Translations under genes and position numbers: made by a program
The notes under the pieces: model-generated
The model's database searches: none
Seen by the model: only the letters and a program-made list of their open reading frames with translations
What the model was told of the DNA's origin: nothing
Assembly (NCBI GenBank): GCA_965208125.1
Contig: OZ242320.1
Location: 4,576,001 to 4,640,000 of the forward strand
Direction of reading: 5' to 3'
Length of the DNA stretch: 64,000 nucleotides
Source of the DNA: Candidatus Latescibacterota bacterium
GTDB lineage: Bacteria > Latescibacterota > UBA2968
Part shown: in pieces, positions 34,294 to 61,134 of the stretch
How positions within the stretch are numbered: position 1 is the first letter of the stretch
Layout of the letters: every line of letters starts with the position of its first letter

Positions 34294-34323
34294 TTTGATA
34301 GTTGGGATGTGTTTGTCATCTTC

Positions 34324-34351
34324 AAAAAACTCGGCAAGAGCCGAGTTTTTT
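34324..34351. terminator. Bidirectional intrinsic terminator
   Basis: AAAAAACTCGGC-AAGA-GCCGAGTTTTTT perfect hairpin with A and T tracts. Confidence 0.88.
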
Positions 34352-34452
34352 GTTTTTACCCACGGATTTTTTAAAGGGGAACGCCAGACCAGAGATACAG
34401 GTCTAATAATTCAGGGCCGAGGAGAGTAACCGATCCACCGGAGAGGGAAAAA

Positions 34453-36018
34453 ATGACCAGATACACACATAAATTGCCTGATTCTATTGACCGGAGGGAT
34501 TTTATTCATCTGGCCGGTCTTGGCACAATGGGTGCGCTTGTTCTGGGGCTGGATGTTCCTGTTGGCGCACAAAAACAACCCAATTTTATCTTTATGGTTT
34601 CTGACGATCAGGGGTGGGACGGGCTTTCGGTGCAGATGCACGATGCGATTGCCGGTTCAAAGAGCGACTTTTATCAGACCCCTAATCTCGAGAAATTGGC
34701 ACAGCAGGGCATGCGCTTTTCGGCTGCTTATTCGCCTTCGCCCGTTTGTTCGCCAACGCGATGCAGCCTTCAAACGGGTAAGAGTCCGGCACAGAACCAC
34801 TGGACAAAGGCATCCCCTATCCTGACTGCCGCAGACGGCCGTAAACTCATCCCGCCGATGCATGGTAGAAATCTTTCCAGTGGTGAGATAACCCTTGCTG
34901 AAATGTTGAAACAGGCCGGTTATACCACGGCACATTATGGCAAGTGGCATCTCGGTGGTGGTGGACCGGGAAACCACGGTTATGACGTACACGATGGAAA
35001 TACGGGTAACAGGGATGCAGCTCGTCATGTCGATCCCAATCCAGTAGATATATTCGGTATGTCCCGGCGTGCCAATGCGTTTATGGAGGAGAATACAGAA
35101 GCGGGCAAGCCGTTCTTTATCCAGTTGTCTTACTATGCTCTGCACTATCCCCGGAATGCGCTGGAAAGCACGCGGCAGGCATACTTAAATCGGCCGAGAG
35201 GGCGCGTCCATCAGAATGTCAATCGCGCGGCGATTACAGAAGACCTAGATACGGGTGTGGGTATGATCATGGACCAAGTTGAGAAACTCGGTATTGGTGA
35301 TCATACATATCTGATTTACATGTCTGATAATGGTGCTGTGGGAGGTGGTTTGGGTGTGTTGCGCGGGTCGAAGGGGTCTTTATGGGAGGGAGGAATCCGC
35401 GTGCCGTTGATCATCCAGGGGCCTGGTATAGAGCCAAATACGTTTTGTGATGAACGCGTGGTCGGTATTGATTTGTTTCCCACGCTTTGCGAATTGGGGG
35501 GCGTGAGTCAGCCGTTGCCATCGGGTATTGAGGGGGGTAGCATCACATCGTTATTATCTGGTGGTACGGGCGCGGTGGAGAGACCACGTGAGGAGATTGT
35601 GTTTCATTTTCCGCACTATCAAAGCGGGGATGGACCACATTCTGCTATTGTACAAGGCGATTACAAGTTGCTCAAATTTTACGAGACTGATGAAGTGCGG
35701 TTATACGATTTGGCCAATGATATTGGGGAACAAAATGATTTGTCCAAAGATATGGGAGAAGAGGCGATGCGTCTGCGCGAACGGCTCGAACAGTATCTGG
35801 TATCTGTTGACGCTCAGTTGCCCGTGCCGAATCCGAATTATGGACCAGGCAAATCAAGTGATTTTAATAGCGATGGGCAAATCGATTTCCAGGATTTTCT
35901 GGAATTTGCCAGAGCTTATGGGTCGGAGGAAGCTCGGTTTGATCTGGATAATAGCGGTCGTGTGGATTTTGCCGATTTTTTGAGGTTTATACAAGATTTT
36001 GGAAGTTCAGGAAATTAA
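34453..36018 (+). CDS. Tat-exported sulfatase with C-terminal dockerin/EF-hand-like tag
   Basis: DRRDFI Tat motif, SDDQG, CSPTR, GKWH, SDNG; C-terminal DFNSDGQIDFQDFLEF..AYG....FDLDNSGRVDFADFLRF..DFG. Confidence 0.93.
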   Translation: MTRYTHKLPDSIDRRDFIHLAGLGTMGALVLGLDVPVGAQKQPNFIFMVSDDQGWDGLSVQMHDAIAGSKSDFYQTPNLEKLAQQGMRFSAAYSPSPVCSPTRCSLQTGKSPAQNHWTKASPILTAADGRKLIPPMHGRNLSSGEITLAEMLKQAGYTTAHYGKWHLGGGGPGNHGYDVHDGNTGNRDAARHVDPNPVDIFGMSRRANAFMEENTEAGKPFFIQLSYYALHYPRNALESTRQAYLNRPRGRVHQNVNRAAITEDLDTGVGMIMDQVEKLGIGDHTYLIYMSDNGAVGGGLGVLRGSKGSLWEGGIRVPLIIQGPGIEPNTFCDERVVGIDLFPTLCELGGVSQPLPSGIEGGSITSLLSGGTGAVERPREEIVFHFPHYQSGDGPHSAIVQGDYKLLKFYETDEVRLYDLANDIGEQNDLSKDMGEEAMRLRERLEQYLVSVDAQLPVPNPNYGPGKSSDFNSDGQIDFQDFLEFARAYGSEEARFDLDNSGRVDFADFLRFIQDFGSSGN

Positions 36019-36051
36019 AAATAAATATCTGTTTATACAGGAGATTATTTC

Positions 36052-37368
36052 ATGAAAATTGTTGGATTTGCGATTGTCGCGTGTTTGTTGTGCGCTTCGA
36101 AACCGAATGCGTGTAGTGCGGATTTGGATAAGGATGGCGAGGTAGGGTTTTCCGACTTTCTGGTGTTGGCTGCCCAATTCGGTCAAACGTGTCCACCTGA
36201 AATGCCGGATACTCTGAGTGCGTTATCCGTAGAGGCAGGCTATGGTCGGATCGTGCTTCCGGGTACACAGGTGGATCTCAATGCCACGCTTACCAATGGT
36301 CCAGGCGCCCGTGTTGTGTGGCGGCAAGTGCAAGGGGCGTCGGCGACGATCAGTTCACCCAATGCGCTTCAGACGACGGTTAGCGTTCCTGTCAATGTCA
36401 GCAGTGCGGAGACTTTGCTGTTTGAAGTGCGTGCGGAGATGGAATCGGGACAACAAGCATCGGATACGGTTTGGATCGAGGTGTACGTACCTGAACAGAA
36501 TCCCGCCGACCTGACGCTTGTGGCAGATTTTTCGCCGAAAGTTGGTTGGGAGTGCAACCAGGATCCAGTAGAGGTTCCAGAGGTTCAGACCCGTGTTTTG
36601 GAAAATACCATCGAATACACTACCAATGGCATTCCCGCCCATGCGACGGGAATATTTCCCAATCGGGGCAATCCGAACATGATTTGGTCGGTGCCGCAAA
36701 CCTGGCGCATTCCCCGCTATCCCGAAAAGACGGACACGCCTACTGAAATGGCTGTATTTGGCATCACGCTCGAGGGCATCAAACTCGAACGCGACACTGC
36801 CGAAAGTTACCGCAACCAGCGGCAGTGGAATTACGAGGCGCTGACCCCGGGTATGGCGCGTCGATTGAGCGGCAATGCACGGTTCGAATGGCTGGGTACA
36901 GATTGCAATAACGCGCACGTTCAGCCGACGGGTATTTACCACTACCACGGCGTGCCGCATAGCTTGATAAATGAAATCACGAGTGGGATGGAAGGAGAGG
37001 AGATGGTATTGGTAGGATATGCTGCCGACGGTTTTCCGGTTTATGTCGCCAGCGGACCCAATGCTCCTGAGGGAAGTTGGGAATTGCGCCAGGGTACGCG
37101 AGAAAGTGGACCCGGGGGAGAATACGATGGCACGTTTCGGGAAGATTGGCAATTTGTCGAGGGATCGGGCGACCTCGACCAGTGCAATGGGCGATTTGGA
37201 GTTACGCTCGAGTTTCCGGAAGGAATATACCATTACTATCTTACCGATGACTACCCGTACATGCCCCGCTGTGTATGGGGGACACCAGATCCTTCGTTCA
37301 GACAACGTCGAGCCGGCCGACCTCCCGGCGGTCCTGGTTTTAGAAGGCGTCCACCACGCCGTTACTGA
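36052..37368 (+). CDS. Secreted YHYH protein with single EF-hand tag and PKD/Ig-like domain
   Basis: Signal peptide; CSADLDKDGEVGFSDFLVLAAQFGQTC; TNGIPAH; DCNNAHVQPTGIYHYHG; GYAADGFPVY; LDQCNG; YHYYLT; Arg/Pro-rich tail. Confidence 0.88.
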   Translation: MKIVGFAIVACLLCASKPNACSADLDKDGEVGFSDFLVLAAQFGQTCPPEMPDTLSALSVEAGYGRIVLPGTQVDLNATLTNGPGARVVWRQVQGASATISSPNALQTTVSVPVNVSSAETLLFEVRAEMESGQQASDTVWIEVYVPEQNPADLTLVADFSPKVGWECNQDPVEVPEVQTRVLENTIEYTTNGIPAHATGIFPNRGNPNMIWSVPQTWRIPRYPEKTDTPTEMAVFGITLEGIKLERDTAESYRNQRQWNYEALTPGMARRLSGNARFEWLGTDCNNAHVQPTGIYHYHGVPHSLINEITSGMEGEEMVLVGYAADGFPVYVASGPNAPEGSWELRQGTRESGPGGEYDGTFREDWQFVEGSGDLDQCNGRFGVTLEFPEGIYHYYLTDDYPYMPRCVWGTPDPSFRQRRAGRPPGGPGFRRRPPRRY

Positions 37369-37417
37369 TCTGGTATTCATAGATTGAACAATATTCGTGT
37401 GGAGGACAACAGACATC

Positions 37418-38575
37418 ATGTTCTTAAAATTATTGAAATCAAAATGGGCTTTGGGTGCGATCTTCACTTTATTTTGTATTTTTAGCCCAATCACTTTGAA
37501 AGCGTCACTGCCCGATTTTGATGGGAATGGCAAAGTCGATTTTGCCGATTTTCTACTTTTTGTAGCTGTATTTGGGCAATCGGCAGTTGGGCAAAATGCG
37601 ATTTACGATCTGGATACAAGTGGAACAGTCGATTTTGGAGATTTTTTAATTTTTGTCAGTGCATTTGGACAACCCATCTCTAATACTGTTCTCGGTGTTA
37701 GCACTCAGGGTTTTGCAACGCAAACAATTTCCAATTTGCTCGATTGTCCCGGGGGGCGCATAAGTCGTGTGGGGACAATTACATCTGACGATGGCAATGT
37801 GTGGATTATGCCTGCCGAGACGCAATACACAACCGCAAGACAGGCATCGGACATGTATAATCAATGCACAAGTGTTTTCACTTCCAATAGCAGTGCTCTC
37901 AATTTGTCGGCTGTGCCAGTCGTAGAGATTGATCAAGGTGGTGAGACGATTACGGGATATATCTTTGCTGACAATTACTTTGAATTGTATGTGAACGGTA
38001 CCTTGATTGCTGTTGATGCAGTTCCGTTCACACCGTTTAATTCGAGCATGGTTCGGTTTAAGGTTAAGCGACCATTTACGATTGCAATGAAGTTGGTCGA
38101 TTGGGAAGAGAATCTGGGGCTTGGCACAGAAGCTAATCGCAATTTTTTACATCATCCGGGAGATGGTGGTCTGGTAGCGAGTTTTCACGATGCCAATGGA
38201 AATACGGTTGCAATTACAAATGATCAATGGAAAGCGCAGACTTTCTATATTGCACCGATTAGAGATTTGAGTTGTATTGTCGAGAAGGAGACCGAGCATT
38301 TGTCCGGCGACTGTGACACGCGTGATACAAATGATGGCAGTCAATTTTACGCAATGCACTATCCCGTCCCATCGAACTGGTACGATAGCGACTTTGATGA
38401 TTCAGCCTGGCCACAAGCCTATACTTATACAAATGCGACAGTTGGTGTGAACAACAAACCCGCATATACAAATTTTACGGATCTATTTGATGATCCTGAG
38501 CACGATGCACAATTTATCTGGTCATCGAATCTCATTTTGGACAATGAAGTGATTGTGCGATATACCGTAAAGTAA
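37418..38575 (+). CDS. Secreted protein: dockerin/EF-hand-like tag plus putative CBM67/lectin-like beta-sandwich
   Basis: Signal peptide; DFDGNGKVDFADF / DLDTSGTVDFGDF; FADNYFELYVNG...TNDQWK...FDDSAWPQA. Confidence 0.75.
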   Translation: MFLKLLKSKWALGAIFTLFCIFSPITLKASLPDFDGNGKVDFADFLLFVAVFGQSAVGQNAIYDLDTSGTVDFGDFLIFVSAFGQPISNTVLGVSTQGFATQTISNLLDCPGGRISRVGTITSDDGNVWIMPAETQYTTARQASDMYNQCTSVFTSNSSALNLSAVPVVEIDQGGETITGYIFADNYFELYVNGTLIAVDAVPFTPFNSSMVRFKVKRPFTIAMKLVDWEENLGLGTEANRNFLHHPGDGGLVASFHDANGNTVAITNDQWKAQTFYIAPIRDLSCIVEKETEHLSGDCDTRDTNDGSQFYAMHYPVPSNWYDSDFDDSAWPQAYTYTNATVGVNNKPAYTNFTDLFDDPEHDAQFIWSSNLILDNEVIVRYTVK

Positions 38576-38601
38576 TGTTATGCTATGGAGGAATTGGACC
38601 A

Positions 38602-40029
38602 ATGAAGCGTAGAGAGTTTCTCGGTGTCGTCGGTGCCGGTGTATGTGGGGTGGCGGTGGCTAATGCGTTTGGTCAAGTTACTTCTAAGCGTCCCAAACAA
38701 CCCAATTTTATTTTTATGGTTTCTGACGATCAGGGGTGGGATGGCCTTTCGGTGCAGATGCACGATGCGATTGCCGGTTCAAAGAGCGATTTTTATCAGA
38801 CCCCTAATCTCGAGAAACTGGCACAGCAGGGCCTGCGCTTTTCGGCTGCTTATTCGCCTTCGCCTGTCTGCTCGCCAACGCGATGCAGTCTTCAAACAGG
38901 CAAGAGCCCGGCGCAGAATCGCTGGACAAAGGCATCCCCTATCCTGACTGCCGCAGATGGCCGCAAACTCATCCCGCCGATGCATGGCAGAGATCTTTCC
39001 AGTGATGAGATAACCATTGCTGAAATGTTGAAACAGGCCGGTTATACCACGGCACATTATGGCAAATGGCATCTCGGTGGCGGTGGACCGGGAAACCACG
39101 GTTATGACGTACACGATGGAAATACGGGCAACGGGAATGCGGCTCCTTTTGTCGATCCCAATCCTGTAGATATATTCGGTATGTCCCGGCGTGCCAATGC
39201 GTTTATGGAGGAGAATACAAAAGCTGGTAAGCCGTTCTTTATTCAGTTGTCTTATTATGCGCTGCACTATCCCCAGAATGCGCTGGCGAGTACGCGGCAG
39301 GCATACGAAAATCGACTGAGAGGGCGCAGCTATCGGGAGATCAACCGTGCGGCCATTACTGAAGATCTCGACACAGGTGTGGGTATGATTATGGATCAAG
39401 TTGAGAAACTCGGTATTGGCGGTCACACATATCTGATTTACATGTCAGATAATGGCGCTGGTGGAAGAGGTCGAGGTGTGTTGCGAGGCGGGAAGGGGTC
39501 TTTGTGGGAAGGTGGCATTCGCGTGCCATTGATCATCCAGGGGCCTGGTATAGAGCCAAATACGTTTTGTGATGAACGCGTGGTTGGCATTGATTTGTTT
39601 CCCACGCTTTGCGAATTGGGAGGTGTGAGCCAGCCGTTGCCAGCGGGTATTGAGGGGGGGAGCATTACATCGTTATTATCCGGTGGCAAGGGCGTGGTAG
39701 AGAGACCCCGTGAGGAACTTGTGTTTCATTTTCCGCATTATCAAAGCGGGGATGGCCCGCATTCGGTAATCATGTTGGGTGATTACAAGCTGATCAAACT
39801 TTATGAGACTGATAAATTGCACCTGTTTGATCTGAGTAAGGATATAGGTGAGGAGAATGATCTGGCAGGTCGCAAACCTGAGGTTGTTGCAAAATTGCAC
39901 GACCAGCTAAATGCGTATTTAGCCTCAGTTGATGCCCAAATGCCCCAGCCCAATCCGTATTACGATCCGAATTGGCCGGTCGGCGGGCGAAGGGGGAGAA
40001 ATAATCGGAGAAGAAGGAATCCGAGATGA
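38602..40029 (+). CDS. Tat-exported sulfatase, near-identical paralogue of 34453, without the tag
   Basis: MKRREFL Tat motif with GGAGG RBS, CSPTR; ends GGRRGRNNRRRRNPR. Confidence 0.93.
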   Translation: MKRREFLGVVGAGVCGVAVANAFGQVTSKRPKQPNFIFMVSDDQGWDGLSVQMHDAIAGSKSDFYQTPNLEKLAQQGLRFSAAYSPSPVCSPTRCSLQTGKSPAQNRWTKASPILTAADGRKLIPPMHGRDLSSDEITIAEMLKQAGYTTAHYGKWHLGGGGPGNHGYDVHDGNTGNGNAAPFVDPNPVDIFGMSRRANAFMEENTKAGKPFFIQLSYYALHYPQNALASTRQAYENRLRGRSYREINRAAITEDLDTGVGMIMDQVEKLGIGGHTYLIYMSDNGAGGRGRGVLRGGKGSLWEGGIRVPLIIQGPGIEPNTFCDERVVGIDLFPTLCELGGVSQPLPAGIEGGSITSLLSGGKGVVERPREELVFHFPHYQSGDGPHSVIMLGDYKLIKLYETDKLHLFDLSKDIGEENDLAGRKPEVVAKLHDQLNAYLASVDAQMPQPNPYYDPNWPVGGRRGRNNRRRRNPR

Positions 40030-40065
40030 TTATCTATTCGTTTTTTTTCATCATTTGATTGGCAA

Positions 40066-40117
40066 TGACGATTTATCCCACGCCTGAAGGCTGTGGGTTT
40101 TACGGGCTATCAGATAA
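40066..40117. mobile_element. IS200/IS605-type end hairpin remnant
   Basis: TTTATCCCACGCCTGAAGGCTGTGGGTTTTACGGGCTATCAGATAA: imperfect palindrome resembling IS200/IS605 sub-terminal hairpins; no tnpA or tnpB nearby. Confidence 0.5.
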
Positions 40118-40148
40118 GCCGGGGATAATAAATTACAGGTGGTGGCAA

Positions 40149-42743
40149 ATGATGAGGCGACAATTGAGGATGTTCGGATTGGTTTTTTGCATGATGAGTG
40201 TGTTGTGTACCAGTTATGCAGAAGGGCACATGCTCTACAGCGATGAAAGTGATGTGACAGATTTCAATGACGACGGAAAAACGGACTTCGTTGATTTTGT
40301 CATGTTTGCGGCTGTATTTGGTTCGCAACAAGTACAGTTCGATTTAAATCAGAATGGTCTGGTGGATTTTCCCGATTTTCTGGTGTTTATCTCTGCATTT
40401 GGACAGCCTGGGGCTGGATCCTCTGGTGGTACAAATGGCGATGCCCCTTTTAGTGCACAAGCATTCCAGCATTTTGCGGATCGGCTGAATATCCGGTGGG
40501 ATGATGATTTTTTATATATCGAGTCCGACGCTTTTCCCGATCACCGCATGATGGTGGGGATTACAGCCTGGAATCAGCAGGTGCCTTTGCCCCAGCCCTA
40601 TCAAGGCGATAATGCTTGGCAGATTCCATTGAAACCCGCGGTTGCAGATGTGCCAGTTTATGCAAGCCAGACGCTGTTTCGGGGGGCTATTGGTCTGGCT
40701 ATTAACGGCGTGCCCATTTTTAATCCCATCAAACAGAATGGCCGCACAGACACGTATTTGGCTGGGGAATTAGATGAATTTGGGGGACATGCTGGTCGTG
40801 CGGACGACTATCACTACCATATCGCGCCGTTGTTTCTTACAGAAAAAGTGGGCGATGCCGTACCCATTGCGTATGCCCTGGATGGCTATCCGATGTATGG
40901 TCTCAATGAACCCGATGGCACCCCGGCAACGAACCTGGACGATTTGAACGGACATTTTGATGCAAATGGAAATTATCACTATCACAGCACGCTGGATTAT
41001 CCCTATGTCAATGGCGGATTTAAGGGCGTTATTGAACTTTTCAGGGGAGAAGAAGTCGCAAATCAACCCCGTACAAGGCCCGTTCGCCCTTCTGGAAGGG
41101 GGATGCGGGCAAATATCACAGATTTTGTGAAGGATATAGATGGCTGGTATCGGCTTACGTATGAGGCAAACGGTGGAACACAGGCGATTGCCTATTTTCT
41201 CAGGCCAGATGGGGATTATGATTTTCAATTTACAGATGCCAGTGGCAATATCACGCGACAGACTTACCGCTCCAATGGGAGTGTTGAGGTAGAAAGTGAT
41301 GCGGGAACGTCAGGCCAGAGCGGTGGGTCTAATGATTCAGGACCTCAGACTGTAACCGATCCATCTGATACAGATTCTGATTCTTTGTTTGTTGCATCCG
41401 AGTTGTTGGGACGACCAACCGACAGATCCGTGACTGTCAATTTGGTTCCATCAGCAGACCTGGAAATTTATCTGGAATACGGAACAGAATCAGGTGTTTA
41501 CACAAATCAGACATCCGTGGTGATGGGGTCACGAAATACACCGATTGAAATTGCGATGGAGGGGTTGCTTTCTGACACGCGGTATTATTATCGAACCCGC
41601 TACCGGCGCGCAGGAGAAACAGAGTTCAAAAGGCGGGGCGAATATACGTTTCACACATATCGGCCACCGGGCACAACATTCACTTTTTCAATTCAGGCCT
41701 GCGCACATTTAGATGGTCGATCCAGCCTGGAACTCTACCATCGCTCGCTGGAAAATGTCGCAGCATATCAGTCCGATTTTCTCATCGATCTCGGTGATAC
41801 ATTTATGTGCAACAAACACTCAGAACCACTTACGGCGACTGTAAGACCCGCACCCGATTACGCAACCGTTGAGCGTCGGTATTTGTACGAGCGTGGGAAT
41901 TTTGGAAAGATTACACATTCTATTCCGCTGTTTCTCGCCAATGGAAACCACGATGGGGAAGAGGGGTGGTCATTGAATGGCACGCCAAACAATGTGGCTG
42001 TTTGGGCTACAATGGCGCGAAAAAAATATTATACGAATCCCGTGCCAGATATGTTCTATTTTGGAGATTCCGATGAAGAGCCGTTTGTTGGTGTGCGAGA
42101 GAGTTATTATTCGTGGTCGTGGGGAGACGCGCTATTTGTCGTGATTGACCCTTATTGGTACACGACAACAAAGCCCAAACGCGGTGGCGTATCGGATAAC
42201 TGGCGCTGGACCCTTGGCGCAAAGCAATATCAGTGGCTGCGGCAGGTGCTGGAGGCGAGTGATGCGACCTTTAAGTTTGTATTTTCACATCAACTGGTGG
42301 GGGGTATTCATACAGGAGAAGGACGCGGCGGTATTGAGATGGCTCCGTATTATGAATGGGGCGGAAAGAATAGAGATGACAGTTGGGGGTTTGACACAAA
42401 ACGCGCGGGATGGTACAAGCCGATTCATCAACTGATGGTAGAGAACAATGTGTCGGCTTTTTTTCACGGTCATGACCATGTGTTTGTGAAGCAGGAATTA
42501 GATGGGGTGGTGTATCAGGTGTTGCCACAACCTAGTAACACAAATTATCGAAATGGTGACAAAATAGCTGCTGAAGGGGGATATTTTAGTGGTACTGTCC
42601 TGGGAAATTCAGGGCATCTGCGTGTGACTGTTTCTCCAGATGATGTTGTGGTGGAATACATCAGAGCTTATCTGCCAGGAGATGAAGGTGCTGGACGGAC
42701 AAATGGTGAGGTGAGCTATTCTTATCGGATAGAGAAAAGATGA
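40149..42743 (+). CDS. Secreted fusion: dockerin/EF-hand tag, YHYH domain, FN3 and calcineurin-like metallophosphoesterase
   Basis: Signal peptide from 40149; DFNDDGKTDFVDF / DLNQNGLVDFPDF; GHAGRADDYHYH, NYHYHST; Ser/Gly linker; DLGD, GNHD, FSHQ, GHDH. Confidence 0.88.
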   Translation: MMRRQLRMFGLVFCMMSVLCTSYAEGHMLYSDESDVTDFNDDGKTDFVDFVMFAAVFGSQQVQFDLNQNGLVDFPDFLVFISAFGQPGAGSSGGTNGDAPFSAQAFQHFADRLNIRWDDDFLYIESDAFPDHRMMVGITAWNQQVPLPQPYQGDNAWQIPLKPAVADVPVYASQTLFRGAIGLAINGVPIFNPIKQNGRTDTYLAGELDEFGGHAGRADDYHYHIAPLFLTEKVGDAVPIAYALDGYPMYGLNEPDGTPATNLDDLNGHFDANGNYHYHSTLDYPYVNGGFKGVIELFRGEEVANQPRTRPVRPSGRGMRANITDFVKDIDGWYRLTYEANGGTQAIAYFLRPDGDYDFQFTDASGNITRQTYRSNGSVEVESDAGTSGQSGGSNDSGPQTVTDPSDTDSDSLFVASELLGRPTDRSVTVNLVPSADLEIYLEYGTESGVYTNQTSVVMGSRNTPIEIAMEGLLSDTRYYYRTRYRRAGETEFKRRGEYTFHTYRPPGTTFTFSIQACAHLDGRSSLELYHRSLENVAAYQSDFLIDLGDTFMCNKHSEPLTATVRPAPDYATVERRYLYERGNFGKITHSIPLFLANGNHDGEEGWSLNGTPNNVAVWATMARKKYYTNPVPDMFYFGDSDEEPFVGVRESYYSWSWGDALFVVIDPYWYTTTKPKRGGVSDNWRWTLGAKQYQWLRQVLEASDATFKFVFSHQLVGGIHTGEGRGGIEMAPYYEWGGKNRDDSWGFDTKRAGWYKPIHQLMVENNVSAFFHGHDHVFVKQELDGVVYQVLPQPSNTNYRNGDKIAAEGGYFSGTVLGNSGHLRVTVSPDDVVVEYIRAYLPGDEGAGRTNGEVSYSYRIEKR

Positions 42744-44101
42744 CCAGATACACACAATGGGCTTTGGGTGCGGTCTTCGCGTTATTTTGTATTTTTAGCC
42801 CAATTACTTTGAAAGCGTCACTGTCTGATTTTGATGGAAATGGCAAGGTCGATTTTGTCGATTTTCTCGCCTTTGCTGGTGCTTTTGGCACCGATCAAGC
42901 CCAATTTGATCTTAATCAAAATGGGCAGGTAGATTTTCCTGACTTTCTGATATTTGTTAGAGCATATGGTGCGAATGATGACACATCCTTACCCGAGCCG
43001 TCTGCATTTTACAAGCTACCAGATGATTGGCAGGTTGTACCTATAGAACAACAAAATTGTGCAAAAGAGGATCTTGTTGGTGTTGATCATGTTTATGTTG
43101 AAACGGCATCAAAATTGTTGGTGTGGCTTACTGGCACGGTTGAGAATGCACATTATGAACCCATTGGTGAGGTGGCAAATTATTTTGGTTTTGCAGCACT
43201 CAGGAACGAGATTCGGGAACGCGATGGGAACAATGCAGATGCCTCTTTTCGGGGTGCAGTCTATAAGGAAGTCTTGGAGCTTTTGGATGATTCTCAACGG
43301 TCGTTTTTATATGAATTATTGGCCGAGCATCGAACGGCAATCAACGGATTTTTGGAAGACCGTGTTTTGTTGGTCGATGAATTGTGGCGTTTAAAAAATA
43401 ACTTTACAATGGACTATGTTCGTGTGATGAACTTAATACAATCAATTGGGGAATACGAAGGTACCATTACGGTCATAACGGCCCAATACTATGCAAAATT
43501 ACTACCTCTTTTAAGCTCTGAACAGGTGCAATACTTAGAAGATATTCGTCGTGGCGTTGTCACCTTAGATCAGATGCAAAATACCTCATTGCCATATGCT
43601 GCAGAAGCAAAAACTCAATTTAACGCACTTAGCCGTGATGATGCTAAATTGATGCAGGAAGTGTCGAGCAAGTTCGTTGCCTGGGCAACGGGTGATTTAG
43701 ATGACGCGCTCTTTTTGCCAAGAGGTAAAATTGGCAACTACTTTGGGTTTTCAAGCTTTCGGTATGTAGATCGAACATCAGTGAGTCGTGGGGGGGCTGC
43801 GGATTTGATTGATCAGGTATTAACCCCAGATCAACAAGCCATTCTTTGTGGTCTCTCGACTAATGTTGTGGGTTATACCCAGGATTATGTTAATGGCCGA
43901 GCGACTTTGATCACGAAATTGGATGCTCTCAAAAAAGATCCTACGCTGCCAGTAGATCATCTTGTAACGGACTATGCTGACCTGGCTGGTCAGGGTGAGG
44001 GCCGCAGAGTAGTGGTAGAAGCATTAACATATCATCTCATAGAGTCTATGATGAGTGCAGAACAAATCCAAAGTCTTAAAGCACTTCGAGTCACAAATTA
44101 A
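42740..44101 (+). CDS. Secreted protein: dockerin/EF-hand tag plus duplicated helical Spy/CpxP-like domain
   Basis: Signal peptide and tag; two repeats of about 190 aa, each with W.TG, NYFGF and two LTxxQ-like motifs. Confidence 0.72.
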   Translation: MTRYTQWALGAVFALFCIFSPITLKASLSDFDGNGKVDFVDFLAFAGAFGTDQAQFDLNQNGQVDFPDFLIFVRAYGANDDTSLPEPSAFYKLPDDWQVVPIEQQNCAKEDLVGVDHVYVETASKLLVWLTGTVENAHYEPIGEVANYFGFAALRNEIRERDGNNADASFRGAVYKEVLELLDDSQRSFLYELLAEHRTAINGFLEDRVLLVDELWRLKNNFTMDYVRVMNLIQSIGEYEGTITVITAQYYAKLLPLLSSEQVQYLEDIRRGVVTLDQMQNTSLPYAAEAKTQFNALSRDDAKLMQEVSSKFVAWATGDLDDALFLPRGKIGNYFGFSSFRYVDRTSVSRGGAADLIDQVLTPDQQAILCGLSTNVVGYTQDYVNGRATLITKLDALKKDPTLPVDHLVTDYADLAGQGEGRRVVVEALTYHLIESMMSAEQIQSLKALRVTN

Positions 44102-44257: not shown

Positions 44258-44292
44258 TACGCCGCGCAAATTTGCGCGGCGTATTCTTTTTT
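44258..44292 (+). terminator. Intrinsic terminator of the YHYH/sulfatase operon
   Basis: Perfect 26-bp palindrome TACGCCGCGCAAATTTGCGCGGCGTA followed by TTCTTTTTT. Confidence 0.75.
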
Positions 44293-48695: not shown

Positions 48696-50126
48696 TTATG
48701 CAACGCCCCAGCCAGGATACTTATCCGGATCCGCAAACTCCTGTCCCAATTCCAAAAAGCCACGGGGGCCACGCCTGCCGTATTCAAATGGATCTTTTGT
48801 ACCTTCCATCCAGCGATGCAATCTTTCTTCCATTTCTTGAAGTGCTGGCCGCGCTTCAGCAGAATTCGCCAGGTTAACCATCTCGAGCGGATCTTCCTGC
48901 CGGTCAAACAGCCAGGGACCTCGCTCATTAGCAAACCAACGCGCATACGTATAGCGTTCGGTACGCACACCGCGCCAGCGCCCAACCCAACCGTCGCGAT
49001 TGGGCCAACCATGTGCCATATTCTGCAAATAGACAGACTCCGATCCACCAGGCGTTAACTCCGTATCTGCAGGTGCTTTACCACCCTGCCACACGCTCGA
49101 AATATCTCGCCCTTGCAGACCTTGTGGTAACGGCACGCCACAAGCACCAAGCAATGTAGGTACAATATCAATCGCACCGAAGAAAGCATCCGTTCGCGTA
49201 CCAGCTTCAATAGCATCAGGCCAACGCACCACAAACGGCACATGGCAAGATTCTTCATAAGGTGTTGCCTTTGAAGCCCGCATCGACTCGTCCAACCATC
49301 TACTACTGGGTTTGCCATACCCATGGCTTGAAAGGTGATCTCCATGATCTGATGTATAACAGACAATTGTATTATCCTTGACCCCCAGGCGATCCAGCGC
49401 TTCTAACAATCGCCCCATCTCTGCATCAAGTCCTGTACAGCACCCGTAATAGTCTGCAAGTTCCTCATGTGCCCATGCTTTCATCTCGTCTGGTACATTG
49501 CCCGGCACATCCATGTCCGCAGGATCATAAATATTATATTCGTCGGGATACTGCTTATATGGCCAGTGAGGAGGTCGCCAGGACACAAAGACGGCAAATG
49601 GATCATCTGTTCGGGCACTTAGGTGTTTTTCTATAAATTGAATAGCCAAATCCGTTTCGTTCGTTGGTGCCCAGCCTCCGTAAAAGTTCGGTCCCTCATC
49701 GTTTTCGTAATAGGTTCTGTCGAAGTAGGCGCCCCGCCCTCTCCCGCCTGCCAGCGCCGCAAGATAATCCAGCCCGTATCGATTGTCGTCGCCGTACGGC
49801 CCTTTACCCAGATGCCAGGTACCCACATGCGCAGTGCCATACCCATGCTCGCGCAAAGTGCCTGGCAAGGTTGGGATATCTCGTCGCGGACTGTACTCAT
49901 TATCAATTACCAAATTTTGCCAACCATACCGACCGGTTAACAAAATAGCTCGATAAGGCGAACACAACGGGTGGTTGGAAAACATATTGTCACACACCAT
50001 TCCTTCAGCTGCCATAGCATCCAAAACAGGCGTTTGGATTACGTCATTGCCATTCGCACCCAGCGCGCTATAACGCTGCTGATCAGAAAATACGAACAGA
50101 ATATTTGGGCGTTTCTCATTACTCAT
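48696..50126 (-). CDS. Sulfatase (S1), cytoplasmic
   Basis: PNILFVFSDQQR, CSPYR, GTWH (K to T), PPH, SDHG. Confidence 0.92.
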   Translation of the reverse strand: MSNEKRPNILFVFSDQQRYSALGANGNDVIQTPVLDAMAAEGMVCDNMFSNHPLCSPYRAILLTGRYGWQNLVIDNEYSPRRDIPTLPGTLREHGYGTAHVGTWHLGKGPYGDDNRYGLDYLAALAGGRGRGAYFDRTYYENDEGPNFYGGWAPTNETDLAIQFIEKHLSARTDDPFAVFVSWRPPHWPYKQYPDEYNIYDPADMDVPGNVPDEMKAWAHEELADYYGCCTGLDAEMGRLLEALDRLGVKDNTIVCYTSDHGDHLSSHGYGKPSSRWLDESMRASKATPYEESCHVPFVVRWPDAIEAGTRTDAFFGAIDIVPTLLGACGVPLPQGLQGRDISSVWQGGKAPADTELTPGGSESVYLQNMAHGWPNRDGWVGRWRGVRTERYTYARWFANERGPWLFDRQEDPLEMVNLANSAEARPALQEMEERLHRWMEGTKDPFEYGRRGPRGFLELGQEFADPDKYPGWGVA

Positions 50127-50145
50127 GGGGATTCCTTTCATGTGG

Positions 50146-54160: not shown

Positions 54161-54208
54161 AGACCGATAGATCGAATGTCGGCAAAAGGCCATACGACAG
54201 GAGGAATT

Positions 54209-55594
54209 ATGGCACCAAATATTGTTTTGTTTCTTACAGATCAATTGAGACGCGATGCGTTGGGGTGTTATGGCAATGAGATTTGTCAGACGCCCAATCT
54301 GGATCAACTCGCAGAGGAAGGTGTGCGATTTGATCAGGCATATACCACAAGCCCTGTTTGTTCTCCTGCACGCGCTTCTTTGATGAGCGGTCTTTATCCG
54401 CACAATCACGGGGTGATGCTCAATACGCATATTGCGCCTGCGTGGAATAGGGGATTGTCAACAGATGTGCCGACGTTTAGCCGTTTGCTCAAAGAGGCGG
54501 GATATGTGCTGGATTATGCGGGTAAGTGGCATGTCCATCAAGATATTGGACCTGAGGAATACGGCTTTGATCGGCATGAGATGGGGAGGGGAGGGCGCGG
54601 GCAAATAGTCCCCGGTACAGAATTGACGGTTGAGTTTCCCGGAAGTTCTTTTCCTGTGGCGGGTACAGGTGAGATGTCGCCAGAAGAGTATAAAACGTGG
54701 ACGGTGACGGATTGTGGGATCGAGATGTTGCGCGAACGGGCAGGAGGAGACAAGCCGTTTTTTTTGCGGATTGATGCAACAGCACCTCATTTTGCCAATA
54801 TTGTTCCGGAGCCTTATGCGTCGATGTACGATCCTGAATCCATTCCACCCTGGCCAAATTTTGACGAATCCTTTGAAGGCAAACCCGCGGCTCATTTGCG
54901 CAAACATCGAGAATGGAATCTTCAAGATAAAGATTGGGCGTGGTGGCGACAGGTGGTTGCCAAGTATTACGGCGATGTGTCTCTGATTGATACCTGCGTG
55001 GGGCGCCTGCTGGATGCGATACGGGAATGTGGGATTGAGGATAATACGATATTCCTCTTCAGTACAGATCACGGAGATGCCATGGGCAGTCACAAGCATT
55101 TTGAAAAATCCGGTACTATGTACGATGAAGTGTTTCGGATCCCATTGCTGATGAAAGTGCCGGGGGGCGTGAGTCGCAATGTGTCGCAATTTGTTCGGCT
55201 GATGGATTTGATGCCTACATTTGTCGAATGGGGTGGTGGGAAATTGCCCGATGGATTGGATGCGAGGAGTTTGGTGCCGCTTGTAAATGGCGATGATCCC
55301 GATGATTGGGCAGACAGTGTGTATTGCGAAAGCCACGGTGAGGTGTGGGGATATAGTTCTCAGCGAATGGTGCGGACGGAGAAATGGAAATACGTTTATA
55401 CACCTCACGACCTGGATGAATTATACGATCTCGAAGTCGATCCCGCGGAGATGAATAATCGGATTGATGATCCGATGTGCGCCGATGTGTTAGAGAATAT
55501 GAAAGGTCGCTTGTTGGGATGGAATGACGCGACCAATGATATGTTTCAGTGGCATTGGGTGAGATTCAATTTTCCCGAGCCGATTGCGCCGTAA
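54209..55594 (+). CDS. Sulfatase (S1, choline-sulfatase-like), cytoplasmic
   Basis: PNIVLFLTDQ, CSPAR, GKWH, PH, TDHG, ELYDL..DP; AGGAGG RBS. Confidence 0.93.
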   Translation: MAPNIVLFLTDQLRRDALGCYGNEICQTPNLDQLAEEGVRFDQAYTTSPVCSPARASLMSGLYPHNHGVMLNTHIAPAWNRGLSTDVPTFSRLLKEAGYVLDYAGKWHVHQDIGPEEYGFDRHEMGRGGRGQIVPGTELTVEFPGSSFPVAGTGEMSPEEYKTWTVTDCGIEMLRERAGGDKPFFLRIDATAPHFANIVPEPYASMYDPESIPPWPNFDESFEGKPAAHLRKHREWNLQDKDWAWWRQVVAKYYGDVSLIDTCVGRLLDAIRECGIEDNTIFLFSTDHGDAMGSHKHFEKSGTMYDEVFRIPLLMKVPGGVSRNVSQFVRLMDLMPTFVEWGGGKLPDGLDARSLVPLVNGDDPDDWADSVYCESHGEVWGYSSQRMVRTEKWKYVYTPHDLDELYDLEVDPAEMNNRIDDPMCADVLENMKGRLLGWNDATNDMFQWHWVRFNFPEPIAP

Positions 55595-59802: not shown

Positions 59803-61134
59803 ATGAGTAAGTCGATAGATGACGATATCAAAGAACGTCCCAATATTCTGATTATTTTCACCGATGATCAGGGGTATGCGGATCTGGGCTGTTTTGGAAA
59901 CAAAAAGAACAAGACACCGCGGCTGGATCAACTGGCGAAGGAGGGTACCCGCTTCACCAGCTTTTACGCCCAGCCTGTGTGCGGTCCGTCGCGGTCGGCA
60001 TTGCTCACCGGTCGCTATCCGGTCCGCAGTAAGGGCTGGGGGATGCCCGCCAGTGAGATCACTTTTGCCGAGTTGATGAAACCCGCAGGATACCAGACGG
60101 CCTGTATAGGTAAGTGGGATGTCTCGAACAGGAAGGAAATTATCGAGCGCATGCCGAATGCACAGGGGTTTGATTATTATTACGGTACTCTTGGCGCAAA
60201 CGACAATGGGTTTATAAAGTTTCATGAGAATAACACGGCGGTTGGTGAAACGGAAGACATGAGCTGTACGATTCGCCTGTACACCGATAAAGCGATTGAT
60301 TTTCTGGAGAATCGCCGAGATCCGAACAAGCCGTTTGTGCTCTATCTGGCGCATACGATGTTGCACACGATCATCGATGCATCTCCTGAGTTTAAGGGAA
60401 AATCGGCTGGTGGGCTATATGGGGATGTGGTTGAAGAGTTAGACCATGAGACCGGACGTTTGCTCGACAAGCTGGACGCGCTGGGATTGCGCGACAACAC
60501 ACTGGTGATCTATACTACGGATAACGGACCGTGGTGCCAATCCAAGTACTATGAAAACAAGAAAGGTCATCCAGAGGGTTCCATCTTTTGGGGCGATCCC
60601 GGGGCGTTGCGCGCCGGTAAGGGATCAGCTTATGAAGCCGGATCTCGTGTGCCCTGTATTGTCCGCTGGCCGGGTAAAGTCCCGGCTGGGCGCACCTCGG
60701 ATGCGCTCTGGGCCACGATTGATTTAATGCCGACTTTTACCGCACTATCAGGTGTCACACCGCCGATGGATCGCGTGATTGACGGCATTGATCAAACCGC
60801 ATTGCTCCTGGGACAGGCCGAAGAAGGCCGAGAAACCTTTATCTATGATCAGGTGGGAGATGGTGATGCCAATATGGGCGTTGGTATTAGAAAGGGAAAT
60901 TGGAAGTTGCTGCTTCCTGGGCGCAAACCGGAACAAGACCATCGCTTTCTGATGGATTTTGGAACCAATGGTCTGGAGTTATACGATCTGGATAGCGACA
61001 TTGGCGAAAAGAACAACGTCACAGACGATCATCCTGAAGTTGTGAAAGAACTCCGTGAAACCTTAGACAGTTTTAAAAAAGGAGTAGCAGATGGATGCGT
61101 TTTATATCCCCGAAGATGCAGAGGCGCAGTTTGA
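59803..61134 (+). CDS. Arylsulfatase-type sulfatase (S1)
   Basis: TDDQGY, CGPSR, GKWD, TDNGP, ELYDL..D.GE. Confidence 0.92.
   Translation: MSKSIDDDIKERPNILIIFTDDQGYADLGCFGNKKNKTPRLDQLAKEGTRFTSFYAQPVCGPSRSALLTGRYPVRSKGWGMPASEITFAELMKPAGYQTACIGKWDVSNRKEIIERMPNAQGFDYYYGTLGANDNGFIKFHENNTAVGETEDMSCTIRLYTDKAIDFLENRRDPNKPFVLYLAHTMLHTIIDASPEFKGKSAGGLYGDVVEELDHETGRLLDKLDALGLRDNTLVIYTTDNGPWCQSKYYENKKGHPEGSIFWGDPGALRAGKGSAYEAGSRVPCIVRWPGKVPAGRTSDALWATIDLMPTFTALSGVTPPMDRVIDGIDQTALLLGQAEEGRETFIYDQVGDGDANMGVGIRKGNWKLLLPGRKPEQDHRFLMDFGTNGLELYDLDSDIGEKNNVTDDHPEVVKELRETLDSFKKGVADGCVLYPRRCRGAV

Follow-up and report, generated by a model that had tools for sequence, protein, structure and literature searches.

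A secreted sulfatase, YHYH and phosphoesterase module, conserved across phyla, carries a lineage-wide dockerin-like tag in Candidatus Latescibacterota

Six adjacent genes in a metagenome-assembled genome of Candidatus Latescibacterota (one-contig assembly, rated 96% complete) encode exported proteins, five of which share a dockerin-like tag, thereby raising the question of whether these proteins build a complex of their own or whether tag and cargo are independent of each other. An earlier note on this DNA proposed the former, namely, that the six proteins join through the tag in an operon-specific envelope complex with His-rich YHYH domains as the metal-binding core. In this study, the operon was analysed in its window, the whole 64,000-nucleotide stretch of DNA, and the tag and the cargo were followed through the genome, related genomes and other phyla. 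The operon, with genes g1 to g6, comprises the following features:

34323-34352, + strand: terminator-like hairpin ending the upstream unit (13-bp stem, then a T run)
34453-36018, + strand: g1, Tat-signal S1 sulfatase with a C-terminal double dockerin-like tag
35851-36015, + strand: g1 tag (aa 467-521), motifs at aa 470 and 497
36052-37368, + strand: g2, with Sec signal, half tag, PKD-like domain, canonical YHYH and Arg-rich C-terminal tail
36112-36192, + strand: g2 half tag, single motif
36250-36483, + strand: g2 PKD-like domain (K319L-like_PKD, 30.8 bits), absent from the earlier note
36700-37281, + strand: g2 YHYH domain (183.7 bits)
37397-38575, + strand: g3, with Sec signal, N-terminal double tag and a domain of predicted CBM67/lectin-like fold
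37505-37681, + strand: g3 double tag
37694-38572, + strand: g3 conserved domain, 293 aa
38575-40029, + strand: g4, Tat-signal S1 sulfatase, untagged, with Arg-rich C-terminal tail
40059-42743, + strand: g5, with Sec signal, N-terminal double tag, divergent YHYH, linker and PAP/PhoD-like metallophosphoesterase
40251-40412, + strand: g5 double tag
about 40617-40904, + strand: g5 divergent YHYH (50.5 bits)
about 41418-42488, + strand: g5 metallophosphoesterase, PAP/PhoD-like
42740-44101, + strand: g6, with Sec signal, N-terminal double tag and all-helical two-repeat cargo
42818-42985, + strand: g6 double tag
42986-44098, + strand: g6 all-helical cargo
44258-44283, + strand: terminator-like hairpin ending the operon (11-bp stem with 8 GC pairs, then a T run)

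The layout, export signals and cytoplasmic surroundings described in the earlier note were all recovered. Six plus-strand ORFs lie between hairpins at both ends, with intergenic gaps of 33, 28, -1, 29 and -4 bp from g1 to g6; judging from orthologues and codons, translation probably begins at the ATG at 37418 in g3 and at the ATG at 40149 in g5. By inspection, all six N-termini carry export signals, which are twin-arginine in g1 (DRRDFIHLAGLG) and g4 (KRREFLGVVGAG; 13.1 bits with NCBIfam TAT_signal_seq, below the 16.7 cut-off) and hydrophobic, Sec-like in g2, g3, g5 and g6. The other enzymes of the window look cytoplasmic: four more sulfatases have no signal and open with the catalytic PN(I/V)..D motif itself, and the further neighbours are MR_MLE, GNAT, Amidohydro_2, DegT, PhyH and GH2. 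Across the genome, an N-terminal motif could be recognised in 106 sulfatases, 105 of which have no signal-like extension, and the six-gene operon is the exported exception among the sulfatases of this genome.

Of the cargo named earlier, two sulfatases, two YHYH domains and a metallophosphoesterase were confirmed by profile searches. Sulfatase (PF00884) matched g1 with 144.3 bits and g4 with 141.1 bits; the two are paralogues (86% identity over 425 aa) and share the maturation motif C-x-P-x-R as CSPTR, at aa 99 of g1 and identical in g4. Among solved structures, g4 is closest to carbohydrate sulfatases: the best match is 9fo1 (entry title 'k-carrageenan sulfatase S1_16', E 2.9e-85), and GalNAc-6-sulfatases come next. 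In g5, Metallophos scored 25.4 bits (cut-off 21.5) and PhoD 26.4 bits, just under its cut-off of 27, and the metal-binding motifs GDTFM, GNHD and GHDH are present at residues 579, 629 and 804. The g2 protein resembles the YHYH family (PF14240, including phage tail-associated copies) over the full model (positions 1-193), whereas g5 (positions 2-109) and its Bacteroidota orthologues match the first half only. In an alignment of 65 sequences, three His and three Asp columns do not vary, and both g2 (H289, H297, H299, D284, D326 and D376) and g5 keep them. These residues appear to fit the predicted catalytic metal site in the available part of PMC7824862, whose His triad and Asp are matched by g2. 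Binding of Zn by YHYH is predicted there and in the accessible text of a 2026 preprint (bioRxiv 10.64898/2026.10.18.759936), which still calls YHYH uncharacterised. Both YHYH copies of this genome lie inside the operon; nothing marks them as the core of an assembly, and this part of the earlier proposal found no support.

The tag motif, D-x-[DN]-x-[DNS]-G-x-[VI]-D-F-x-D-F-L-x-F, occurs in nine copies in five proteins, distributed as first reported: doubled in g1 (C-terminal, aa 470-512) and in g3, g5 and g6 (N-terminal, directly after the signal), single in g2 (aa 24-39, between Cys21 and Cys47) and absent from g4. In the four proteins with paired copies, which start 27-31 residues apart, the tag has the two-segment layout of type I dockerins, each segment of ~22 residues holding a 12-residue EF-hand-type Ca loop and a helix, in agreement with the duplicated Ca-loop-helix recognised before. 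The comparison with profile models gave a divided result, in which EF-hand_1 was matched and Dockerin_1 remained mostly under threshold. Whole-protein hmmscan with Dockerin_1 gave 20.3 bits for g1, 18.7 for g6, 14.9 for g3 and 13.8 for g5 (gathering score 22.9), and no match for g2. A six-frame search gave 23.4 bits for g1 and 18.0 for g3, and g5 and g6 passed the cut-off only when neighbouring matches were counted together. EF-hand_1 scored at least as high as Dockerin_1 on the window tags (g1 29.6 bits, g6 25.5 bits), NCBIfam dockerin_GC stayed below threshold, and weak sequence matches connected the tag with the solved dockerins 2y3n_B and 2jnk_A.

The tag is not confined to the operon. A profile HMM of the four double tags matched 86 of 25,559 stop-to-stop ORFs genome-wide, with 41 tags in C-terminal, 32 in N-proximal and 13 in internal position. 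With Dockerin_1 (E<=0.001), 56 matches were obtained here and 8-60 per genome in 40 relatives; the model was matched in all 41 genomes of the order, representing 8 genera. Tagged proteins elsewhere in the genome were mostly LRR and beta-propeller proteins: in the 56 tagged proteins scanned, a set that excludes 24 tagged ORFs of more than 900 aa, LRR, WD40/beta-propeller, PD40 and Vgb_lyase were the leading families, and the 25 families listed include no glycoside hydrolase. The tag is a generic, lineage-wide motif and not the mark of an operon-specific complex, which is the outcome that the earlier note itself had set against its proposal; the operon would thus be one client set of a display system and not a private 'cellulosome'. 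Although the tag is present on five of the six neighbouring genes, a density that chance would hardly produce with 86 tagged ORFs genome-wide, although the signal-plus-tag DNA of g3 and g6 is near-identical (86% over 136 nt), and although the YHYH domains, with their invariant His and Asp, are confined to the operon, a union of the six proteins around a YHYH core is very unlikely: the tag occurs throughout the order and in this genome sits mostly on LRR and beta-propeller proteins, g4 is untagged, the g2 orthologue of one species (locus L028) has lost the tag, the closest cohesin is distant, and in Bacteroidota this cargo is found together although it bears no dockerin. Tagged genes also form groups of 3, 4 and 7 elsewhere in the genome.

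The search of the genome for cohesins, the partners expected of a dockerin, succeeded. Cohesin (PF00963) gave 7 matches, 5 of them over the cut-off, and 1-12 matches apiece were found in 41 of 41 related genomes. None lies in or near the operon, and the closest is ~165 kb off, at C1:4784058. Three cohesin modules directly precede C-terminal domains (CTDs) of type IX secretion (T9SS). A cohesin is combined with a C-terminal Por_Secre_tail/FlgD_ig domain in a 1610-aa carrier (cohesin aa 1382-1501, CTD aa 1525-1606) and a 277-aa carrier (cohesin aa 61-150, CTD aa 195-266). The tail module of the former is 65% identical to that of a 2172-aa protein, for which the six-frame search gave 36.1 bits with Cohesin and hmmscan of the whole frame listed no Cohesin at E<=0.01. 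The SprA translocon, with 641 bits, was well over its cut-off of 200; PorV-like (157.7 vs 250) and PorU-like (265 vs 420) matches remained under their cut-offs. Only ~18 proteins in the genome have a T9SS CTD of their own, and tags outnumber cohesins by ~10 to 1. No secretin match (TIGR02517, PF00263) and no T2SS were found in the genome.

The tag resembles the clostridial type I dockerin-cohesin system in its module of ~55-60 aa with two Ca-binding loops (D-x-D/N-x-D/N-G-x-V/I-D-F-x-D), each followed by a helix, and in the presence of cohesin modules in the same genome. Unlike the clostridial system, about one third of the Latescibacterota tags are N-terminal after the signal peptide, scores are mostly sub-threshold, the carriers have one or two cohesins with no CBM seen, contrary to a cellulosome, and the host is didermic, with anchoring apparently by T9SS CTD and not by SLH or sortase. 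The cargo consists of LRR and beta-propeller proteins plus the hydrolase set instead of CAZymes. Non-cellulosomal cohesin-dockerin sets have been proposed in FCB/PVC candidate lineages: in the available parts of the reports, Cloacimonadota 'Ca. Stygibacter' would have a cohesin scaffoldin whose conserved T9SS-type CTD attaches it to its own cell surface, together with dockerin enzymes (PMC8542988), and Planctomycetes would have a 'planctosome' (PMC6461901). As far as these parts describe them, those proposed systems carry peptidases, GH18 and GH57, in contrast to sulfatase, phosphoesterase and YHYH here, and the carriers here are not tandem-cohesin scaffoldins.

The real finding is the cargo set, which is conserved across phyla. 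For the g3 domain, 2370 homologues with 55-60% identity were found, and neighbours were counted within 10 kb of this domain in 80 loci of other genomes: g5-type YHYH was present in 62, g5-type phosphoesterase in 24, sulfatase in 21 and g2-type YHYH in 14, with full flanks in only 37 of the 74 loci outside Latescibacterota. The co-occurrence of the families elsewhere, a check that the earlier note had suggested, therefore holds for most of the cargo but not for g6, which was near the g3 domain in 0 of these 74 loci. Clusters of freshwater Bacteroidota, Saprospiraceae, Flavobacterium and Chitinophaga (e.g. L074, L046, L065 and L035) contain co-oriented genes for a sulfatase, a g2-type YHYH, 2-3 PAP/PhoD-like phosphoesterases, a g5-type YHYH and the g3 domain, with identities to the window of 55-60% for g3, 39-53% for the g5-type YHYH, 42-52% for the phosphoesterase and only 24-30% for the sulfatases against g1. 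Unlike the window, these clusters keep YHYH and phosphoesterase, fused in g5, in separate genes, add Lcl_C, two thioredoxin-like proteins and HupE/UreJ, lack g6, and bear Por_Secre_tail on every secreted member and dockerin on none. A shorter version occurs in marine Flavobacteriaceae, accompanied by PEBP, a LytS-type kinase, a LytTR regulator and a TolC-HlyD-MacB set.

The tag swap is seen directly in these loci. Outside Latescibacterota, T9SS CTDs occur on 39 of 39 phosphoesterases, 14 of 16 sulfatases, 31 of 61 g5-type YHYH proteins and 36 of 73 g3-domain proteins (25 more being lipoprotein-like), and those of locus L074 were confirmed by Pfam; a dockerin-like tag is present on one g3 homologue from Pirellulaceae. 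Cargo co-occurrence is independent of the tag, since the Bacteroidota proteins use T9SS CTDs or lipoprotein-like signals. The module is accessory: among 20 species of the genus, 13 have g3 and 8 have g6, and the same queries recovered neither gene from 20 genomes of other genera.

We consider it modestly probable that the operon is a conserved secreted module re-addressed here by a generic cohesin-dockerin display tag. The module would comprise the g5-type YHYH, the g3 domain, one or more PAP/PhoD-like metallophosphoesterases, an S1 sulfatase and often a canonical second YHYH, with a per-protein T9SS CTD in Bacteroidota and a type-I-dockerin-like double EF-hand module instead in the Latescibacterota lineage. 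The tag would be an order-wide address, most probably for Ca-dependent docking on the cohesins that precede T9SS CTDs, and a few cohesin-CTD carriers would display the tagged proteins at the cell surface. Some observations speak against display: there is no secretin for outer-membrane passage of Sec/Tat-exported tagged proteins, there are ~10 tags per cohesin, the window tags fall under the Dockerin_1 gathering score, and a Spy/CpxP-like g6 and Tat-exported sulfatases suit the periplasm equally well.

The tag could instead be no cohesin ligand but a periplasmic, Ca-dependent EF-hand module serving, for example, folding after export, retention or envelope-polymer binding, so that the six proteins would act on imported oligomers. 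Such a role would agree with EF-hand_1 scores that equal or beat those of Dockerin_1, the lack of a detected secretin or T2SS, two Tat members, the likeness of one member to periplasmic Spy/CpxP/ZraP proteins, the surplus of tags over cohesins and the intracellular remaining sulfatases, but the orthologous Bacteroidota cargo is addressed to T9SS (surface or medium), Cohesin and Dockerin_1 are both in all 41 related genomes searched, and cohesins adjoin a surface-anchoring CTD; we regard it as rather unlikely.

What the module might do is suggested by its less familiar members. The cargo part of g3 has no Pfam match, and the core of its predicted model (pLDDT 75.8; model residues about 67-262) aligned with 6kbj_A (Z 8.4, rmsd 3.4, 123 aa, 20% identity), residues 130-299 of 3w5n_A (Z 8.4, rmsd 3.1, 127 aa) and 2okx_B (Z 8.2), while the first unrelated fold in the ranking stood at 5.1; entries 6kbj_A, 3w5n_A and 2okx_B again ranked first with Foldseek. 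In this model the fold matches a rhamnose/galactose-binding lectin and CBM67, which supports the lectin-like label given before (Pleurotus lectin and the CBM67 regions of GH78, Z 8.2-8.4). The g3 domain differs from CBM67 and the Pleurotus ostreatus lectin in showing no detected sequence-level relationship, in its ~290 aa with additional N- and C-terminal parts, and in a very high conservation across phyla (55-60%), which a pure binding module would rarely show. Lcl_C adjoins or is fused to the g3 domain in 36 of 74 loci, in Bacteroidota, and is the commonest accessory gene; its founding member binds sulfated glycosaminoglycans, according to the accessible text of PMC11162425.

The g6 protein has 179 relatives and a predicted model with pLDDT 94.1. 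Like Spy/CpxP/ZraP proteins, its cargo consists of helices only, in two repeats that close with L-[ST]-x-x-Q-like motifs; unlike them, g6 is ~3x longer and has a dockerin-like tag. The Spy/CpxP-like label of the earlier note has indirect support from relatives, as LTXXQ matched 4 and Metal_resist 5 of 30 family members (cytochrome c matched 6), whereas the cargo of g6 itself had no LTXXQ (PF07813), Metal_resist (PF13801) or other Pfam match. ZraP (3lay) aligned over 79 of 79 residues (rmsd 2.6), but at Z 4.0 and rank 35, a score within the noise for proteins made of helices, and an atlas cosine of 0.78 to LTXXQ/Spy-CpxP-ZraP is a lead only. A distant relationship of the g6 cargo to LTXXQ/Metal_resist (Spy/CpxP/ZraP) proteins is indirectly suggested by its family.

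As a secreted and displayed module, the operon would perform an extracellular first attack on an anionic glycoconjugate: g3 would bind the substrate, g1 and g4 would remove sulfate and g5 phosphate esters, the metal-dependent YHYH domains might cut the substrate, g6 may act outside the cytoplasm as a chaperone or in metal handling, and the products would feed the otherwise cytoplasmic catabolism. HupE/UreJ_2 (14 of 74 loci) and thioredoxin-like genes (17 of 74) in the Bacteroidota clusters, together with Metal_resist-like partners, point equally to metal handling. A module mainly for metal acquisition or handling, or a set of metalloenzymes with maturation factors, could also draw on the invariant YHYH site with its predicted Zn binding (PMC7824862; bioRxiv 10.64898/2026.10.18.759936, in their available parts), the Metal_resist, LTXXQ and cytochrome c matches among g6 relatives and the binuclear metalloenzyme nature of the phosphoesterase. 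We consider it unlikely in view of sulfatases near carbohydrate sulfatases, the CBM67/lectin-like model of g3, the frequent Lcl_C of a GAG-binding adhesin family, and the loci examined, which showed neither a metal-responsive regulator nor a TonB-type receptor.

With no secretin, ~18 own CTDs, 86 tagged ORFs and cohesins placed before CTDs, the dockerin may be an outer-membrane ticket. Cargo would then bind a periplasmic cohesin-CTD carrier and cross SprA as a complex; we think this quite unlikely. If true, the lineage would have swapped the per-protein CTD of Bacteroidota for a trans-acting adaptor. On a second, independent reading of this unlikely kind, the g3 domain and YHYH, as a conserved pair, would represent a novel type of metal-dependent enzyme that acts on anionic glycans.

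The operon spans 34453-44101 of the window, which is located at positions 4576001-4640000 of contig C1 in a one-contig, 5.75-Mb genome (G000); near-identical loci (95-97%) are known from Candidatus Latescibacterota MAGs. Six genes, with intergenic gaps of -4 to 33 bp, are bracketed by terminator-like hairpins at 34323 and 44258 and encode nine tag motifs in five proteins, thereby bearing out the anatomy described in the earlier note. The gene products were as follows:

g1, + strand, 521 aa: S1 sulfatase with twin-arginine N-terminus and CSPTR maturation motif
g2, + strand, 438 aa: PKD-like domain and full YHYH domain (183.7 bits)
g3, + strand, 392 aa: no Pfam family beyond the tag
g4, + strand, 484 aa: S1 sulfatase with twin-arginine N-terminus and CSPTR maturation motif
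g5, + strand, 894 aa: divergent YHYH domain (50.5 bits, first half of the model) fused to a PAP/PhoD-like metallophosphoesterase with the motifs GD, GNHD and GHDH
g6, + strand, 453 aa: no Pfam family beyond the tag

The two sulfatases are 86% identical across 425 residues; among solved structures, 9fo1 ('k-carrageenan sulfatase S1_16', E 2.9e-85) is nearest to them, ahead of GalNAc-6-sulfatases. When solved structures were searched by sequence, g2, g3 and g6 matched EF-hand/dockerin chains through the tag only, and g5 yielded no match at E<=0.1. Arginine-rich tails (7-9 Arg per last 20 residues) were observed at the C-termini of g2 (37300-37365) and g4 (39985-40026), the two operon proteins without a full double tag; these tails are kept in the orthologues of other species, and a similar one occurs on one cytoplasmic sulfatase elsewhere. 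Immediately before g1, 66 nt at 34377-34442 are 76% identical to 41303-41368 within the g5 linker joining YHYH and phosphoesterase, and this repeat may be a rearrangement scar.

The tag motif, D-x-[DN]-x-[DNS]-G-x-[VI]-D-F-x-D-F-L-x-F, is paired at the C-terminus of g1 and directly after the signal peptide in g3, g5 and g6; g2 carries one copy flanked by two cysteines, and g4 carries none. By this architecture the tag would be a type I dockerin, as had been proposed, but by score its membership is borderline: Dockerin_1 reached 13.8-20.3 bits against a threshold of 22.9 and NCBIfam dockerin_GC was likewise sub-threshold, whereas EF-hand_1 reached up to 29.6 bits (cut-off 25.4).

The tag is not confined to the operon. 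A tag HMM derived from the four double tags detected 86 tagged ORFs genome-wide, with the tag at the C-terminus in 41, N-proximal in 32 and internal in 13; 51 of these genes are solitary, and the remainder form eight pairs and clusters of three, four, five (the operon) and seven. Outside the operon, Pfam scanning covered 56 of 81 tagged ORFs, all of 900 aa or shorter. The families met most often on these 56 proteins were LRR, beta-propellers including WD40, PD40 and Vgb_lyase, and no glycoside hydrolase was present among the 25 families listed for them. Dockerin_1 matches (8-60 per genome) and Cohesin matches (1-12 per genome) were found in all 40 relatives, covering eight genera of one order. 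The tag is thus a generic, lineage-wide motif; the operon-private complex envisaged earlier finds no support, and YHYH as the core of a private cellulosome-like assembly is unsupported. Two further regions, C1:4774371-4832877 and C1:5662321-5681645, were noted for an island of large dockerin-bearing proteins and, separately, the cluster of seven adjacent tagged genes. The island comprises four paralogues of 1233-1516 aa in which an internal FlgD_ig/Por_Secre_tail-like domain precedes the dockerin, as well as small cohesin ORFs, two of which are near-identical fragments at 4783923 and 4796670.

The conservation of the operon lies in its cargo. The 293-aa g3 domain, the unnamed cargo part of g3, has at least 2370 homologues at E<=0.001; among the best 120, identity is 55-60% for most, many carry PF18962, and those with a named source belong to Bacteroidota, Ignavibacteria or Kapaibacteria. 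Neighbourhoods were surveyed at 80 loci seeded on this domain in named genomes, 74 of them outside Latescibacterota and half curtailed by contig ends. A g5-type YHYH gene lay within 10 kb of the g3 domain at 62 of the 80 loci (57 of the 74 outside Latescibacterota), together with g5-type phosphoesterases (24 loci), sulfatases (21) and g2-type YHYH genes (14). YHYH is rare, with two matches in the host genome, both within the operon, and zero in 14 control genomes, so its adjacency to the g3 domain is not due to chance. The expectation that the six families co-occur across phyla was sustained for YHYH, the g3 domain, phosphoesterase and sulfatase, but not for g6, which was found at only 4 of the 80 loci, all in Latescibacterota. 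Gene maps showed fixed orders, for example:

L074 and L046: sulfatase, YHYH, two thioredoxin-like genes, two phosphoesterases, YHYH, g3 domain, Lcl_C, phosphoesterase
L065: two phosphoesterases, YHYH, g3 domain, Lcl_C, sulfatase, HupE/UreJ

Lcl_C is fused to the g3 domain in Haliscomenobacter. In marine Flavobacteriaceae the g3 domain occurs with YHYH and PEBP, and the flanking genes encode a LytS-type kinase, a LytTR regulator, Lcl_C and TolC-HlyD-MacB. Accessory genes at the 74 loci included Lcl_C (36), thioredoxin-like AhpC/TSA (17) and a HupE/UreJ_2 membrane protein (14) in Bacteroidota, with example sites at L065:13963-14532, L074:3180-4284 and L035:9902-12058. None of the passages on the YHYH domain found in the literature describes the gene cluster; supplements, such as secretome tables, might hold cluster-level data.

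In a quick IQ-TREE analysis of 83 g3-domain sequences with midpoint rooting, the 67 Bacteroidota rows formed one clade (support 100), with Latescibacterota and the homologue P0002 outside it. Recent horizontal transfer of the domain from Bacteroidota finds no support in this tree, and no direction is claimed. Within its own genus the operon is accessory: of 20 species, the queries used recovered g3 from 13 and g6 from 8, and 20 genomes of other genera yielded neither.

The address of this cargo differs between lineages. The T9SS C-terminal sorting domain (CTD) was detected using an HMM built on eight Pfam-confirmed CTDs of L074 with one iteration, and lipoprotein-like proteins were called by a crude regular expression. 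Outside Latescibacterota, the CTD occurred on 39 of 39 phosphoesterases, 14 of 16 sulfatases, 31 of 61 g5-type YHYH proteins and 36 of 73 g3-domain proteins, a further 25 of the last being lipoprotein-like. At the six Latescibacterota loci the cluster proteins bear the dockerin-like tag. A Pirellulaceae g3 homologue also has a C-terminal dockerin-like tag and adjoins a sulfatase and a CotH/LTD protein, the latter clearly matching Dockerin_1 (36.7 bits). That the same cargo carries a CTD in Bacteroidota or a dockerin-like tag in Latescibacterota and at least one member of Pirellulaceae argues for a role of non-cellulosomal dockerins as a surface or secretion address in didermic candidate phyla.

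Across species of the genus, the tags act like cassettes that can be moved. The signal-plus-tag DNA of g3 and g6 is 86% identical; in one related species (L028) the g2 orthologue has no tag, and in another (L031) it has a g5-like tagged N-terminus, g4 is missing and the g5 orthologue starts with the Tat signal of g4. Signals and tags recombine among the operon genes.

Structure models and conserved sites were examined for the unnamed cargo. The g3 model (pLDDT 75.8) resembles a Pleurotus ostreatus lectin and, in GH78 rhamnosidases, the CBM67 regions (Z 8.2-8.4; next fold, Z 5.1). Foldseek returned the same targets, whose entry titles name complexes with rhamnose, GalNAc and melibiose. In an alignment of 65 sequences, three His and three Asp are invariant and kept by both YHYH copies, in agreement with the predicted Zn hydrolase of PMC7824862; a 2026 preprint, where it lists the family, gives it as uncharacterised. 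The g6 model (pLDDT 94.1) is a two-repeat helical protein without a Foldseek match in the PDB at E<=0.001. Its fold was not accepted as proof of the Spy/CpxP membership suggested for g6, the best wide VIA matches being photosystem I subunits (Z 6.2, helical noise) and ZraP reaching Z 4.0. With 179 representatives among 1.84 billion, the g6 family is small, and some members match LTXXQ, Metal_resist or cytochrome c. Among 30 relatives (P0121-P0181) of this nameless family, six contain a cytochrome c domain and one a T9SS CTD.

The exported sulfatases stand out in their genome, where S1 sulfatase matches number at least 150 (193 candidates, of which 150 were scored, g4 not among them). Signals were called by a hydrophobicity rule, with the N-terminal motif not recognised in 44 of the 150 and minus-strand frames picked loosely; of the 106 with a recognisable motif, 105 have no signal-like extension and start a few residues from the catalytic domain, g1 being the sole exception. 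The arsenal is unusually large and apparently cytoplasmic. Four signal-less members in the window adjoin cytoplasmic-looking sugar-acid enzymes and a GH2:

48696-50141, - strand: signal-less sulfatase
54176-55594, + strand: signal-less sulfatase
59803-61134, + strand: signal-less sulfatase
61943-63337, + strand: signal-less sulfatase

On these grounds the operon stands out as the exported fraction of a mostly intracellular arsenal. With more than 100 other sulfatases seemingly cytoplasmic, it is a good candidate for the outward-facing step in the organism's use of sulfated substrates.

The cellulosome-like proposal does not fail for want of a cohesin, since seven matches were found in the genome, five above the cut-off. 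Proteins of 1610, 2172 and 277 aa have a C-terminal cohesin directly before a FlgD_ig/Por_Secre_tail domain, the sorting signal of T9SS, and cohesin, dockerin and LRR occur together in a 662-aa protein. For the whole 2172-aa frame Cohesin was unlisted by hmmscan, yet the tail modules of the 2172- and 1610-aa proteins share 65% identity. SprA was recovered with 641 bits (cut-off 200), PorV-like and PorU-like matches were both under their cut-offs, and there are only 18 Por_Secre_tail matches. No secretin was found with GspD (TIGR02517) and PF00263 in the one-contig assembly, rated 96% complete; with SprA present, T9SS is the only recognised outer-membrane route for folded proteins. The best PorV-like gene (157.7 bits; G000:C1:424498-426878 region) is the immediate upstream neighbour of a dockerin-tagged gene (C1:425526-426878) and lies about 3 kb from a 1019-aa frame with the genome's best CTD match. 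Co-folding of the 1610-aa protein's tail cohesin with the g6 tag and two Ca scored 0.08 against a mark of 0.32, a result without controls and neutral on binding. That cohesin-CTD carriers ferry tagged cargo through T9SS appears improbable.

Such a cohesin-dockerin system is already of a known kind. A cohesin scaffoldin with a T9SS-type CTD has been proposed for Cloacimonadota (PMC8542988) and non-cellulosomal cohesin-dockerin complexes for Planctomycetes (PMC6461901), and passages in PMC7081726 and PMC7424252 attribute dockerins to Latescibacteria, citing Farag et al. 2017. Youssef et al. 2015 (PMC4454575) mention sulfatases and neither dockerin nor cohesin, and the literature search found no paper combining Latescibacteria, dockerin and cohesin.

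Taken together, the evidence supports a phylum-spanning, conserved secreted module that is addressed here by a generic dockerin-like tag, with T9SS-anchored cohesins as candidate partners; cohesin binding, surface location and substrate of the tagged operon proteins are what we infer. The YHYH family (PF14240) and the widespread, unnamed g3 domain gain a conserved context of phosphoesterases, carbohydrate-type sulfatases and Lcl_C, and many members occur in cultivable Flavobacteriia (Winogradskyella, Zobellia, Maribacter and Flavobacterium), thereby making the function testable by ordinary genetics. The findings raise the question of how tagged proteins cross the outer membrane in a genome with T9SS and no detected secretin, and the operon constitutes a natural experiment on protein addressing, in which one cargo set is equipped with either a CTD or a dockerin-like module.
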